From NCBI GenBank assembly GCA_963677595.1, contig OY782041.1:288001-352000 (forward strand): DNA of 64,000 bases, in the 5' to 3' direction. The first letter of the stretch is position 1, and each line of letters starts with the position of its first letter. Positions 42,292-46,291 of the stretch are shown here, piece by piece. The DNA comes from Spirochaetia bacterium (GTDB lineage: Bacteria; Spirochaetota; Spirochaetia; CAKZLE01). Below the pieces are notes generated by a model, which ran no database searches, was not told the origin of the DNA, and saw only the letters and a list, made by a program, of their open reading frames with translations. Both the position numbers and the translations under genes were made by a program.

Positions 42292-42654
42292 TCAGCTCTC
42301 ACCCCTAATTGCCTGTAGGGAGAGGATCTCCGACACAGATCTTCTTAACTCGGGAACATCAGCGATGGCGATCCGATAGATCCGCTCCTCAAGGATCTCC
42401 CCATATTCATGAGCAATGATGTTTCTCAATCCTATGATCAGCTTCCATGGAATATGATTATACACATCCCTACAACTTACCGAGAGATGAGCGGCGGCCT
42501 CACCTATGACAAGCAGTTGACGTTCAACAGCGAACCGCCTCATCTTATTCTGGGAGAACTCCGAGAATGATATATCCTGCATGAACTTGATGATATCAAT
42601 ACAGGCATCCTTGATATCCCAGAGATAGCCCTGATCCCTTTCATCAAGCTGCAT
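42292..42654 (-). CDS. HEPN/DUF86 (HepT-like) ribonuclease toxin
   Basis: IGEAA, IPWK and RNIIAHEY (RX4H) motifs; start overlaps the MNT stop. Confidence 0.9.
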   Translation of the reverse strand: MQLDERDQGYLWDIKDACIDIIKFMQDISFSEFSQNKMRRFAVERQLLVIGEAAAHLSVSCRDVYNHIPWKLIIGLRNIIAHEYGEILEERIYRIAIADVPELRRSVSEILSLQAIRGES

Positions 42655-42949
42655 AGATGACCTTTGCATTCTTTAGGATATGCTCTTTCCTGTAGGGGTT
42701 TCTCAGACTCCCTTTCTCAACAAGATCAACGCTCCTTCCCAGTGCTTTCTCAAATACCTCCTGTATGGCGAACAGGTCAAACAAGGAGTATGCAACACCT
42801 TCATTGAAAACAACCAGGAGATCTATATCACTCTCCTCAGTGAAGCTTTCAGTGAGTATCGATCCGAACAGGGAGAGCTCCTCGATGTGGTATGCTAAAG
42901 AGATAGCTTCTATTACCGTATCATCGATCTCATACTTAGGGAATCTCAT
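42644..42949 (-). CDS. MNT (minimal nucleotidyltransferase) antitoxin
   Basis: LFGSILTESFTEESDIDLLV (GSX10DXD) and LGRSVDLV motifs. Confidence 0.9.
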   Translation of the reverse strand: MRFPKYEIDDTVIEAISLAYHIEELSLFGSILTESFTEESDIDLLVVFNEGVAYSLFDLFAIQEVFEKALGRSVDLVEKGSLRNPYRKEHILKNAKVIYAA

Positions 42950-43258
42950 AGCTTTATTGTATATTCCACAGAATTATTGTCAAGAGAGAGGATTCAGCAA
43001 ATAAGACCAGATTCCCGTCAGCAGGATTAGTTTCACCCCACATTCCTCACTTTCATGACGCACACATAGCAGGATTTTCCATTTCAGGAAAGGATTGAGA
43101 CTACGAAGGGCTATTCATCCTTACCGATCCTCCACACGGCATAAAAATCGGCAAATCCGCCTGGTTGCTACCCCGTCTGAACAGACATGCTGATGATCAG
43201 GACAGTAACCAGCCTTCTCATAGGTTCTGAGGATCAGACGCAGGTACACCTACGAAGT

Positions 43259-44962
43259 TCATGCATGCAGAGAGGTCAGGACACACCTCACCCCCTTGTC
43301 GTAGAATACGCGTTCATCAAGACCCAATGCAGACAGGAAGGCCAACTGACGGGAAGAGAGCGGATTTACCAGCACCGCTTCTGCTCCCATCTCTGCCGCC
43401 ATGATACCGCCAAACACGGTACTCATCATGAATGAAGTCGGCTTTGCCGTCGGTTTGTTGTCCCAGCCTGGTACCGTAGTACCTTCCTTCTGGAGATACC
43501 GCCGCATCTGCCGCTCCATCAACCGCCAGACCATCAGGGCGATCACGAGAATCATCCCCAATGCATCTATGCGGGAAGGGGTTTTCAGAAACAGGTCATT
43601 GACTACCAGGGGATCCTTGAGGAATGAAAAATCACTCTCGATCCCATACTGGCCTTTGTACGTACGCAGTACCGATGCGGCATCAAGCGATGCAACAGCA
43701 ACATTGGTAAGCAGCACAAAACATCCTGCCTGCTCTCTGAGCACCTGCAGCTTGTCCGACTTTTCGGTGATCTCCCAGTTCAACTCATACCGCAGATCTA
43801 CAGGCGGCGGACCCTCCTTCGGGGGACGTCCACGACGCCGAACCGCCACTTCTTGGATCGTAACCGTTAACGAGTGCAGCGGGGAAGAGACCGCAGCGAG
43901 GTTGGCAGCAGCAACCTGCGCATCTTCGCTGCAGTAATACTGTCGCTGAACTTTCTTCAATTTCCCGTTCAGCTCCTTCAACGATTGCTCAATCGCTTTG
44001 TCAATCTTCTTCTGCCTTCGCTTATCATGGGAACTCGAATGTATCACGACCCCGCGATAGGGCTTTTCATACAACGTTACCGTCGTCTCGCACCCCTTAT
44101 AGATCGCAGGAGGCCGGTTCTTCCCTGTTGGTGTTTCAGCCATCATGCCTATGGGACTCCAGCGACCCGCTCCGATCGCTTCCCTTATTGCCTGGTCACA
44201 TGCGCCGTAGGTTGCCGGAAGACGGCTGATGAATGGCATCGACCCTAAAGCCTCCAGATTCTCCTGCGTCACCATGGCCGAGTCTGCAACATAGATACAG
44301 GCCCCATCTCCCAACCCATGTCGGGAGAGCAGTGTACTGATCCGTGTGAGCATCGCATTGTTAGACGTCTTGTCTGAGGAGTTCCCATTGAGGGTACTGC
44401 TGAAGATTGGGACCCCATGATCCACGCACAGTAACTCCGTCATGAACTGCTTGAGATCCGGTCGGTGATCCTTGGAGTGCCCCAGGACGATCGAAGGCCC
44501 CGGGGTCTTTTCCTGCTCACTCCCCCGGTATTCCCCCCAGACACTCGTACTGGTAGTATCGTAACTGAGGGCATGCATATCCAGATCGAAGACCTGTGCT
44601 GCCCGAATCCCCAGTTCGGTCACAATCTTCGATGGGCCGGCATCGAAGATCGCATCCAGGGACCGAGCTATGTTCGTGTCATTGAACAGATGCGGATCTA
44701 CCTCCTGTCCCAGCAATAGGCTGCGGTTCTGCTGCTCGATGAACTGCTCGATCCGATACAGCGGCGACCGTCCATGCAGGACATCGAGCACCATCGTCTG
44801 TACCACGAGCCCCGGAGATAGCTGCATACGGGTCTCCACCGCCGCATCCACGATGTCTCTCAACCCGAGCATGCGGCAGTAGGCCGCCGCAATGGGCAGG
44901 TAGGAATGGGTATAGATTCTGGTATGCTGAAACAGGGTTGAAAGGGGCGGAGTACTGGCCAT
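43259..44962 (-). CDS. IS1634-family DDE transposase
   Basis: YDTTS, GHSKDHRPDLKQ, GNSSD, VADSA and YKGQYGIESDFSFLK motifs. Confidence 0.9.
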   Translation of the reverse strand: MASTPPLSTLFQHTRIYTHSYLPIAAAYCRMLGLRDIVDAAVETRMQLSPGLVVQTMVLDVLHGRSPLYRIEQFIEQQNRSLLLGQEVDPHLFNDTNIARSLDAIFDAGPSKIVTELGIRAAQVFDLDMHALSYDTTSTSVWGEYRGSEQEKTPGPSIVLGHSKDHRPDLKQFMTELLCVDHGVPIFSSTLNGNSSDKTSNNAMLTRISTLLSRHGLGDGACIYVADSAMVTQENLEALGSMPFISRLPATYGACDQAIREAIGAGRWSPIGMMAETPTGKNRPPAIYKGCETTVTLYEKPYRGVVIHSSSHDKRRQKKIDKAIEQSLKELNGKLKKVQRQYYCSEDAQVAAANLAAVSSPLHSLTVTIQEVAVRRRGRPPKEGPPPVDLRYELNWEITEKSDKLQVLREQAGCFVLLTNVAVASLDAASVLRTYKGQYGIESDFSFLKDPLVVNDLFLKTPSRIDALGMILVIALMVWRLMERQMRRYLQKEGTTVPGWDNKPTAKPTSFMMSTVFGGIMAAEMGAEAVLVNPLSSRQLAFLSALGLDERVFYDKGVRCVLTSLHA

Positions 44963-44993
44963 CGGTATCCTCCTGTAGCGGTCGTGGAAACAG

Positions 44994-45052
44994 GACTTGA
45001 CTGATCACTGAACCTACTGTATTATACAGTAGGACAAGAGAGGAGTCAAGTC
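44994..45052. promoter_or_regulatory. Mirror-symmetric bidirectional sigma70 promoter with central palindrome
   Basis: Plus strand TTGACT-N17-TATTAT; minus strand TTGACT-N17-TATAAT; CCTACTGTA-TTA-TACAGTAGG centred on 45023. Confidence 0.8.
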
Positions 45053-45415
45053 ATGACCACCGAGACGGCACAGAAGCGCCTTCAGGTACTTCGCCGCAAA
45101 CAGCAGGAACTCGCCAAGGAACTGAGCACGATCGAATTTATCTGGTCAGGATCCATCTCCAAACGGTTTCTTACCTGCGGGAACCCCTCGTGCAAGTGTC
45201 ATACAGACACTGAGGCCAAGCATGGACCGTATTACTATTGGACGACCAAAAAGGGCGGGAAGACCGTAGCCAGGAAGCTCACAGAGCAGCAGGCTGAGGT
45301 CCTCCAACCATGGATTGAGAACAGGAGAACCCTGGAGAAGACGATGAATGCCATGAAGAAGCTCTCTCAGGATGCGTATGAAGCCATTTTGGTCCTCTTG
45401 GACGATGAAGGGTAG
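45053..45415 (+). CDS. DUF6788-like small Cys/His protein inside the IS
   Basis: GSI...CGNPSCKC...HGPYYYW motif flanked by coiled-coil-like helices; AGGAG RBS. Confidence 0.8.
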   Translation: MTTETAQKRLQVLRRKQQELAKELSTIEFIWSGSISKRFLTCGNPSCKCHTDTEAKHGPYYYWTTKKGGKTVARKLTEQQAEVLQPWIENRRTLEKTMNAMKKLSQDAYEAILVLLDDEG

Positions 45416-45505
45416 CGCTTTTTAAACCGATTTTAGCCCGAAATTAAATACCCGTTTTTTGCTGAGAAATAGTGAGGAATGTGGGTTTCACCGTTTGGCA
45501 TCTTA

Positions 45506-45616
45506 ACCGCAGAAATAGGCAGGCAGTGGACTTCCGTGCTATGATACTGGTATGGGATGCAGGTCTAAGGGAGAACAGCTATGATCACACGAGTGAGGTT
45601 CACGATCACCGGGCGG
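45506..45616 (+). repeat. 111-bp direct repeat copy 2
   Basis: Matches 42132-42242 and contains the acyP RBS and start. Confidence 0.95.
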
Positions 45617-45856
45617 GTGCAGATGGTAGGCTTCCGGTATTTCACCATCCACCAGGCACGTGATCTTGGGATCACCGGGTACGTACGCAACCTGCCCGAT
45701 GGTTCCGTGGAGGTCGTTGCCCACGGGGAAGAGTTTGCTGTCGAAGTACTATCCCTGCGACTGAGGCAAGGTCCCCCTTCCGCCCGGGTGGACTGGGTGT
45801 TCAGGGATGAGCTCGATCCTGCGGGAGAGACATTCCGAAACTTCTTCGTCAGATAG
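45581..45856 (+). CDS. acyP: Acylphosphatase
   Basis: [21 protein letters not shown] and GPPSARV motifs. Confidence 0.93.
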
Positions 45857-45865
45857 GAGCATCGC

Positions 45866-46291
45866 ATGAGCCTGAACCATATCAACATCATCGTCACGGA
45901 CCTCGAACGGGCCGCAGGGTTCTTCTCCCTCTTCGGCTACAGCCGAACCAATGCGAAGCATCTCTCTGGTTCCTGGTTCGAGGAGGTCACCGGGTTCCCT
46001 GCTGCCGAGGCTGACTACCTCGCTCTCAACCATCCCGATTCACCGGTACGGCTGGAACTCCTGTGCTACACCACTCCGCCCTCCCCGCCTCCCGTTGATA
46101 TAGGCTCCCTGAACCTCATCGGTTACCGGCATATTGCCCTTGAGGTCGACTATATCGAGGAGAAGCGCAAGCAGGTCGAGCAGGCTGGATACCGGTTCAC
46201 GAGCGCCATCAGGAGGAACTCCTACGGCAGGAAGATGTGCTACTGCATCGGACCGGACGGCATCGTGGTGGAGCTGCTCTCCCGTACCTGA
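45866..46291 (+). CDS. VOC/glyoxalase family protein
   Basis: LNHINI...DLERA, LELL, HIALEV and GPDGIVVEL motifs. Confidence 0.85.
   Translation: MSLNHINIIVTDLERAAGFFSLFGYSRTNAKHLSGSWFEEVTGFPAAEADYLALNHPDSPVRLELLCYTTPPSPPPVDIGSLNLIGYRHIALEVDYIEEKRKQVEQAGYRFTSAIRRNSYGRKMCYCIGPDGIVVELLSRT

Follow-up and report, generated by a model that had tools for sequence, protein, structure and literature searches.

A 64,000-nucleotide stretch of the genome of a Spirochaetia bacterium (GenBank assembly GCA_963677595.1, contig OY782041.1, positions 288,001 to 352,000 of the forward strand; hereafter the window) contains an insertion sequence (IS) of the IS1634 family in which the transposase gene (-) stands head to head with a small gene (+) encoding a protein of the DUF6788 family. 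The 90-bp gap between the two genes contains a dyad with two opposed predicted promoters, and the inner part of this dyad is a palindrome that represents a candidate operator. Comparison of related elements shows the palindrome to be inherited with DUF6788. It is somewhat probable that DUF6788 binds this palindrome as a dimer and represses the transposase gene as well as its own. More tentatively, and with a confidence that falls slightly short of balanced, the protein, the palindrome and the two-way promoter may constitute a self-contained, 'plug-and-play' repressor-operator cassette. This cassette would be built on a DNA-binding fold without a solved relative and would have been captured repeatedly for burst-then-silence control, by transposons whose transposases belong to four or more, perhaps eight, unrelated families.

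A predicted symmetric promoter shared by two divergent genes

The dyad has the layout GACTTGACT-N10-CCTACTGTA-TTA-TACAGTAGG-N10-AGTCAAGTC and is the longest inverted repeat of the region, with 32-nt arms at 78% in the repeat search. Its inner part forms a 10+1+10 palindrome that spans the two -10 boxes together with the two predicted start sites, and when the upstream region of the element was shuffled 50 times, no palindrome of this quality arose. A consensus scan of the whole element returned exactly two strong promoter-like sites, both located in the dyad and facing apart. These are opposed near-consensus sigma-70 promoters whose -10 hexamers overlap by five bases (Table 1). Direct reading bore out what the first-pass annotation had reported of the element, namely its 15-bp terminal inverted repeats (IRs), the TTTCAC duplication, the divergent genes and the dyad. 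The two promoters that it had described, TTGACT-N17-TATAAT and TTGACT-N17-TATTAT with overlapping -10 boxes in a 21-bp palindrome, were recovered by the consensus scan.

Transcription of the DUF6788 gene is predicted to start near 45031-45032 (+) and that of the transposase gene near 45014-45015 (-), which places the predicted start sites 18 bp apart. In the accessible text of Warman/Grainger (bioRxiv 10.1101/2020.01.31.928960, PMC12825309), bacterial bidirectional promoters are described in which the -10 elements overlap on opposite strands. There, a spacing of 18 bp between divergent start sites is the commonest, 10 and 23 bp are also common, and at 18 bp the second position of a hexamer is paired with the sixth position of its counterpart. 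The predicted promoters of the window have this 18-bp configuration, with -10 elements overlapping on opposite strands. Because this geometry is that of the described class, the bidirectional promoter is not new in itself. What goes beyond the class is the complete symmetry, which includes both -35 boxes, and the extension of the palindrome by 7 bp past each -10 box, as far as the predicted start sites.

In many relatives, the DUF6788 start codon is contained in the opposing promoter's -35 box (ATGTCAA; upstream regions L077, L067, L043, L092, L102 and L104). In the class of L077, both start codons are situated inside the palindrome arms, 7-9 nt from the centre, and therefore leaderless mRNAs are predicted in both directions.

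Conservation and covariation of the palindrome

Relatives were collected with a close-homologue profile (A1), which gave 7 loci from genomes and 68 from metagenomes, and with a Pfam search within the phylum, in which 11 of 301 genomes contained DUF6788. After the removal of identical proteins, 60 DUF6788 open reading frames (ORFs) were available. Most of the divergent neighbour ORFs that were scanned are IS1634 transposases (37 of 45), and the head-to-head layout recurs in relatives whose transposases share as little as 22-31% identity with that of the window. The IR search covered 30 loci with a divergent ORF of at least 430 amino acids (aa) and sequence on both sides. Convincing terminal IRs enclose both genes in most of these loci, giving elements of 1.9-2.46 kb, and the best IR pair is short and weak in L068 and L040.

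Nearly all upstream regions of the relatives contain a palindrome bounded by TTGAC...GTCAA. A best palindrome score of at least 8 was obtained for 30 of the 60 DUF6788 upstream regions versus 1 of 60 control stretches inside the gene, and in 33 of the 60 regions at most one of 50 shuffles equalled the palindrome. By strict criteria, an opposed promoter pair is present in 34 of the 60 regions, with predicted start spacings of 18 bp (12 loci), 21 bp (5), 23 bp (16) and 29 bp (1).

The arms fall into classes by lineage, namely CCTACTGTA/TACAGTAGG, CCTAGAGTA/TACTCTAGG, CCTACTATA/TATAGTAGG, CCTACGGTA/TACCGTAGG and CTTACTGTA/TACAGTAAG, and the arms change in a matched manner (CTGT/ACAG, GAGT/ACTC, CTAT/ATAG, CGGT/ACCG). 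In an alignment of 20 loci (A2), whose rows are related and were hand-picked among loci with a clear centre, both sides are altered in 4 of the 10 palindrome pairs, and the covariation score was reached in none of 500 shuffles. Counting Watson-Crick pairs only, 170 of the 200 cells of this alignment are paired, a value reached by none of 2000 shuffles. The conservation and covariation of the dyad in related elements, which had been proposed as a check of the original idea, were thus found, including compensatory arm changes. The N10 spacers flanking the palindrome are not conserved. A by-eye look at the co-variation of protein residues with operator class was confounded by phylogeny and was not used.

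Two further loci depart from the usual arrangement. A distant DUF6788-like gene in L047:123-2171 (138 aa, 27% identity) has a palindrome of the ATAGCCTAT/ATAGGCTAT type, whose 18-bp arms contain two mismatches. Opposite this gene lies a 541-aa ORF without a Pfam or NCBIfam match, which may encode a transposase from a family not yet described, and the two genes are bounded by 14-bp IRs. In L076:534-1964, a group II intron reverse transcriptase/maturase (TIGR04416, E 2.8e-131) lies directly upstream of DUF6788, in the place of the transposase, and the usual palindrome was not found at this locus.

Association of the palindrome with DUF6788 rather than with transposase or host

The IS1634 sample consisted of 30 loci from 201 genomes of the phylum, 3 of them with a DUF6788 ORF and 27 without. 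For the 17 DUF6788-free loci with upstream sequence, the best palindrome scored 4-7, and none of the 17 reached a score of 8. These loci have a one-way promoter upstream of the transposase and, in several cases, a shared motif beside it that was taken by eye as an IR. The DUF6788 hidden Markov model gave no match to the transposase ORFs of the 30 IS1634 loci.

DUF6788 also occurs with transposases of other families. Partners that scored over their family cut-off belong to IS4 (L078, L080, L033), IS66 (L071, divergent; L066, tandem), ISAs1 (L057) and IS630 (L093, tandem), while IS1182-like (L064, L065, L068), IS701-like (L095) and IS6-like (L091) partners were significant at scores below the cut-off. 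The IRs that enclose DUF6788 and the foreign transposase are 22-25 bp long in the IS4 type and 20 bp in the IS1182-like type, and the IS66-type element L071 has perfect 32-bp IRs with an 8-bp duplication, TAACGCCG.

The palindrome persists in the IS4-type (L078, L080, L033), IS66-type (L071) and IS1182-like (L064, L065) elements. It also adjoins IS630 and IS701-like genes, where membership inside such elements is only possible, and no palindrome was found at the ISAs1 and IS6-like cases. Examples are ATTCTTATGGTA-gtta-TACCATAAGAAT in L033, ATACATACCATA-gtat-TATGGTATGTAT in L071, AGTATAGCAT-gtat-ATGCTATACT in L095 and ATATCCTACTAT-tgtact-ATAGTAGGATAT in L066. The last of these is a unidirectional case, in which DUF6788 and the IS66 transposase follow each other in tandem and perfect 12-bp arms lie over the promoter.

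In a maximum-likelihood tree of the 60 DUF6788 proteins, rooted at the midpoint for drawing only, the non-IS1634 partners are scattered among the IS1634-linked ones. The IS66-type L071 falls into a starred clade with the IS1634-type L077, L067 and L070, and the operator class ACATACCATA is common to all four. From these comparisons we claim several exchanges of DUF6788 between transposase families, with no claim as to their direction.

In the host genome, which is one contig of 4.33 Mb, the palindrome was found at up to 3 mismatches only in the 8 copies of the IS, and a reversed control pattern was found 0 times. By this search, the palindrome does not belong to a regulon of the host. No half-site of the palindrome was detected within 2 mismatches at the IS ends, and for this reason additional binding of the protein to the IRs was no longer considered. 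The tests with DUF6788-free IS1634 elements, foreign transposases and the host genome assign the palindrome most probably to DUF6788 and not to the transposase or the host.

The DUF6788 protein

The small protein matches PF20586 with an E-value of 2.6e-32 (111.5 bits against a gathering cut-off of 27.2; Pfam). The match covers residues 12-110 and profile positions 3-101 of 103, that is, the full-length domain. The Pfam scan of the protein returned PF20586 only, and neither a recombinase nor a MerR-family domain. Across 46 diverse members, the residues G33, C42, G43, C47, C49, H57, G58, P59 and Y60 are invariant, among which C42, C47, C49 and H57 form a CCCH set that adjoins an HGPYYYW motif. 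Of the CxxxxCxC...H motif noticed at first in the window, these four residues are therefore retained, whereas H50 is not invariant in the wider family.

The AlphaFold2 model has a mean confidence (pLDDT, predicted local distance difference test) of 96.1 and a predicted template modelling score (pTM) of 0.78, and the 54-residue core folded separately reached a pLDDT of 91.9. In the model, a helix (residues 3-25) is followed by three strands (34-40, 57-67 and 70-76) and a second helix (78-119). DUF6788 is thus confidently modelled as a helical hairpin that carries a basic three-stranded sheet, in which the CCCH site probably binds zinc. Among 46 relatives, the net charge of the sheet core has a median of +6.5, and the median isoelectric point (pI) of the whole protein is 10.35. 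The C-terminal helix of the model is about 20 residues longer than its N-terminal partner, which would suit dimerisation. With its basic charge, confident model and invariant C42, C47, C49 and H57, the modelled protein suits the role of a repressor.

In a profile search, no PDB sequence was matched below an E-value of 0.36, and the matches in a protein atlas were unnamed clusters only, with scores of at most 0.86. An integrase arm-type or AP2-like sheet, considered at first, found no support in the fold searches.

The DUF6788 family comprises 4,317 sequence clusters at E<=1e-3. Among the 120 cluster matches listed, the longest contigs are mostly IS-sized, and the names are nearly all 'hypothetical' or 'DUF6788'. 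Fused forms appear to be rare, although the evidence is weak, as the search for longer homologues gave one 251-aa protein. A tblastn search of a plasmid collection returned one weak match of 25% identity, annotated as a hypothetical protein. The name 'DUF6788' was not found in any paper of the literature searched, and among the matches listed for 'IS1634 family', no second gene is named in the titles or abstract openings. One close homologue, P0003, is named 'septal ring factor EnvC (AmiA/AmiB activator)' in one source, which is probably a coiled-coil-driven misannotation.

Proposed repression and alternative explanations

Because the palindrome travels with the protein through several unrelated transposon families, DUF6788 is likely to be a repressor. 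Control of both promoters by the small protein through the palindrome, as the first-pass annotation had suggested, is the best-supported reading, judged by sequence comparison alone. In the proposed mechanism, RNA polymerase would load in one orientation at a time on the shared -10 region. In a cell without DUF6788, for example when the element has just arrived in a new host, both genes would be expressed. Accumulating DUF6788 would occupy the palindrome from start site to start site and close both promoters, and the outcome would be a transposase burst followed by silence, as described for TnpR of Tn3. Since such a compact combination of promoter, operator and regulator would need nothing from the transposase, the cassette would be open to capture by unrelated IS families.

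Several points weigh against this interpretation. TTGACA-N17 promoter-like sites upstream of the transposase are also present in IS1634 relatives without DUF6788, and as these elements also have strong-looking promoters, a repressor is not obviously required. For the same reason, little weight can be given to the earlier argument that repression is needed at a near-consensus transposase promoter. Part of the symmetry could stem from two mirrored promoters with mirrored leaders, a point illustrated by the start codons in the arms of the L077 class, and by the strict score the palindromes are only imperfect in 30 of the 60 upstream regions. Moreover, the pairing percentage and the shuffle test of the 20-locus alignment overstate the case because its rows were selected and are related. 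On the side of the protein, Foldseek searches against the PDB gave no match at E<=1e-3, either for the whole model or for the 54-residue core. With VIA-align, the best Z-score of the core was 2.7, and the whole model reached 8-9.2 over about 60 aligned residues with generic helical hairpins. Since the fold has no solved relative, DNA binding is not arguable by homology.

An alternative that we regard as unlikely, but as the most serious one, is that the palindrome is a by-product of two mirrored strong promoters that share a -10 region and have mirrored discriminators, leaders and start codons. In this case, control would be exerted by polymerase competition alone, and DUF6788 would be a transposition helper that does not bind the site, with a role for instance in transpososome assembly, DNA bending or target choice. 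Such an explanation agrees with the geometry of the described bidirectional class, with predicted start spacings of 18 bp at 12 loci and 23 bp at 16 loci, and in the accessible part of PMC12825309 one polymerase binding event excludes the other. It would also fit the start codons of several relatives, which are situated within the arms or overlap the -35 box facing the other way, and the fact that no DNA-binding fold was recognised in the Foldseek and VIA-align searches. However, a joint change of the two arms is not required for promoter function, and the one-way tandem case L066 retains its perfect arms. In addition, a helper tailored to one transposase would be unexpected beside IS1634, IS4, IS66, IS1182-like, IS630 and IS701-like enzymes, and there are no half-site copies at the IS ends.

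A role of palindrome-bound DUF6788 as a direction switch or activator is improbable; it would fix the orientation of the polymerase in the manner of MerR-type factors at bidirectional promoters and thereby set the ratio of transposase to DUF6788. The location of the site, which covers the shared -10 region and has a -35 box on either side, is compatible with such a function, and the evidence that ties the palindrome to DUF6788 applies to it equally. Yet a symmetric dimer on a perfectly symmetric site would have no obvious directional bias, and activation seems unnecessary at two promoters that both have optimal 17-bp spacers and near-consensus boxes. The protein also lacks a MerR-family domain by Pfam.

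Least probable is binding of the palindrome by a host factor (LexA-like or another global regulator) or by the transposase, with DUF6788 as an unrelated passenger: transposases often bind DNA in their own elements and TACTGTAT..ATACAGTA resembles the gamma-proteobacterial SOS box, but no other genomic copy exists at up to 3 mismatches, the arms vary between element lineages from many hosts, one operator class is found with both IS66 and IS1634 transposases, and the palindrome was not found in IS1634 elements without DUF6788 nor its half-site in the IRs. A LexA/SOS box would have the form CTGT-N8-ACAG and would be expected at several genes of the host. A LexA operator was rejected on account of the CTGT-N5-ACAG spacing of the palindrome and its confinement to the IS copies.

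Relation to known systems

Repression of both genes by DUF6788, the reading preferred here, would resemble regulation in Tn3. In the accessible text of PMC7157771, Tn3 is described with divergent genes for the transposase and a small regulator, whose promoters lie inside one intergenic site. The regulator binds this site, represses both genes and permits a burst of expression in a new host. The tnpA-res-tnpR region of Tn3 and gamma-delta is alike in layout and would, as proposed, be alike in function. However, TnpR is a serine recombinase, whereas DUF6788 has no recombinase domain by Pfam and is thus not a resolvase of this type. Similarly, res is a three-subsite recombination site, in contrast to the single 21-bp palindrome found here, which lies in a 2.4-kb IS without a cointegrate-resolution function.

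A second likeness concerns InsA of IS1. According to the accessible text of PMC12428005, this small IS-encoded protein contains a zinc-finger motif and acts as a repressor of the transposase promoter. DUF6788 would be comparable as a small, zinc-type, IS-encoded protein with proposed repression of the transposase promoter. The differences are that InsA and the transposase InsAB' have a DNA-binding domain in common and that the terminal IRs, in which the promoter is located, are the target of InsA, while the transposase ORFs examined here contain no DUF6788-like domain and the IRs no half-site, so that DUF6788 is not a regulator of the InsA type. In the present element, the candidate site is located away from the ends, and DUF6788 has a gene of its own in divergent orientation. 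Furthermore, InsA has a helix-turn-helix, which the DUF6788 model lacks.

With the promoters of Warman/Grainger, the dyad shares the overlapping opposite -10 hexamers, the pairing of positions 2 and 6 and the predicted start spacing of 18 bp, which is 18 or 23 bp in most relatives. Basal activity is low in the reported E. coli examples, and most of them are less completely symmetric, whereas both -35 boxes are near consensus here and the covarying palindrome is linked to a specific gene family.

The element and its surroundings

The transposase matches the NCBIfam model NF033559 with 287.2 bits (cut-off 100, E 2.8e-85), which places the element in the IS1634 family, and its DUF4277 domain matches PF14104 with an E-value of 1.2e-17 (Pfam). 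The terminal IRs, the short target duplication of 6 bp and the multiple copies also agree with this family. IS1634 elements are typically described as consisting of a single ORF. The element of the window differs from them in its second conserved gene, DUF6788, which lies inside the IRs in divergent orientation, and in its internal promoter. A related IR, CCCACATTCCTCAC, is present in the loci L011 and L012. The records of the close relatives are Sphaerochaetaceae and Spirochaetia metagenome-assembled genomes.

Table 1. Features of the IS1634-family element, with coordinates in the window
Feature	Coordinates	Strand	Basis
Target-site duplication, left copy, TTTCAC, 6 bp	43031..43036		direct reading
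IS1634-family element, 2,449 bp	43037..45485		direct sequence reading
Left terminal inverted repeat (IRL), 15 bp, CCCACATTCCTCACT	43037..43051	+	repeat search, 100% complementary
IS1634-family DDE transposase, 567 aa, N-terminal DUF4277	43259..44962	-	NF033559 + PF14104
Dyad with both promoters, 59 bp, centre 45023	44994..45052		direct reading and repeat search
Predicted DUF6788 promoter: TTGACT (44997-45002), 17-bp spacer, TATTAT (45020-45025)	44997..45025	+	consensus scan 10/12
Palindrome, 21 bp, CCTACTGTAT-T-ATACAGTAGG, candidate operator	45013..45033		direct reading, comparison
Predicted transposase promoter: TTGACT (45049-45044), 17-bp spacer, TATAAT (45026-45021)	45021..45049	-	consensus scan 11/12
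DUF6788 protein, 120 aa, basic, pI 9.2	45053..45415	+	PF20586
Right terminal inverted repeat (IRR), 15 bp, exact reverse complement of IRL	45471..45485	-	direct reading and repeat search
Target-site duplication, right copy, TTTCAC	45486..45491		direct reading

The 8 copies of the element in the host genome comprise 6 full copies, which are identical or one base apart, and 2 interrupted ones. A distinct 6-bp duplication is present at each of the 6 copies for which both flanks were read (5 full, 1 interrupted). The element is therefore real and recently active. The interrupted copies lie at C1:1683475-1688378 and 1734198-1738806 of the host genome (L002, L007-L010). One of them contains another copy of the same IS. 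The second one carries an insert of about 2.15 kb, in which the IS1634 model also scores, and has retained a CTGTGA duplication. A second type of IS1634-family element with a 600-aa open frame is present in the same genome (C1:757243-758880 and 1576431-1578068; L115, L131). It is without a DUF6788 gene, and its upstream palindrome is not strong, with a best score of 7.

About 80 bp to the left of the IS, a HepT-like RNase (PF01934) and a nucleotidyltransferase (PF01909) are encoded at 42292-42949 on the minus strand by overlapping ORFs, as is typical of a HepT/MNT toxin-antitoxin pair. To the right, an acylphosphatase gene (45581-45856) is followed by a glyoxalase-family gene (45866-46291). 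The strong DUF6788 promoter is directed outward through IRR, and a promoter/terminator scan found no terminator-like site after the gene (45416-45580). Read-out from this promoter into the acylphosphatase gene, 95 bp past the IS, is possible.

Implications

To our knowledge, the control of transposase levels is understood for only a handful of model IS elements. Judged from the sequences compared here, the new aspect would be transposon autoregulation at a divergent promoter by means of the unstudied DUF6788 family, in a form portable between IS families. This family appears as a separate regulatory cassette that is mobile between such families, and the annotation of IS elements would be improved because DUF6788 marks the interior of an element. 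If the protein binds the palindrome, it would represent a new small DNA-binding fold, and as several arm classes exist, the family would provide a natural set of matched repressors and operators. The elements would then also offer unusually clean, natural and fully symmetric bidirectional promoters for studies of polymerase competition and repression.

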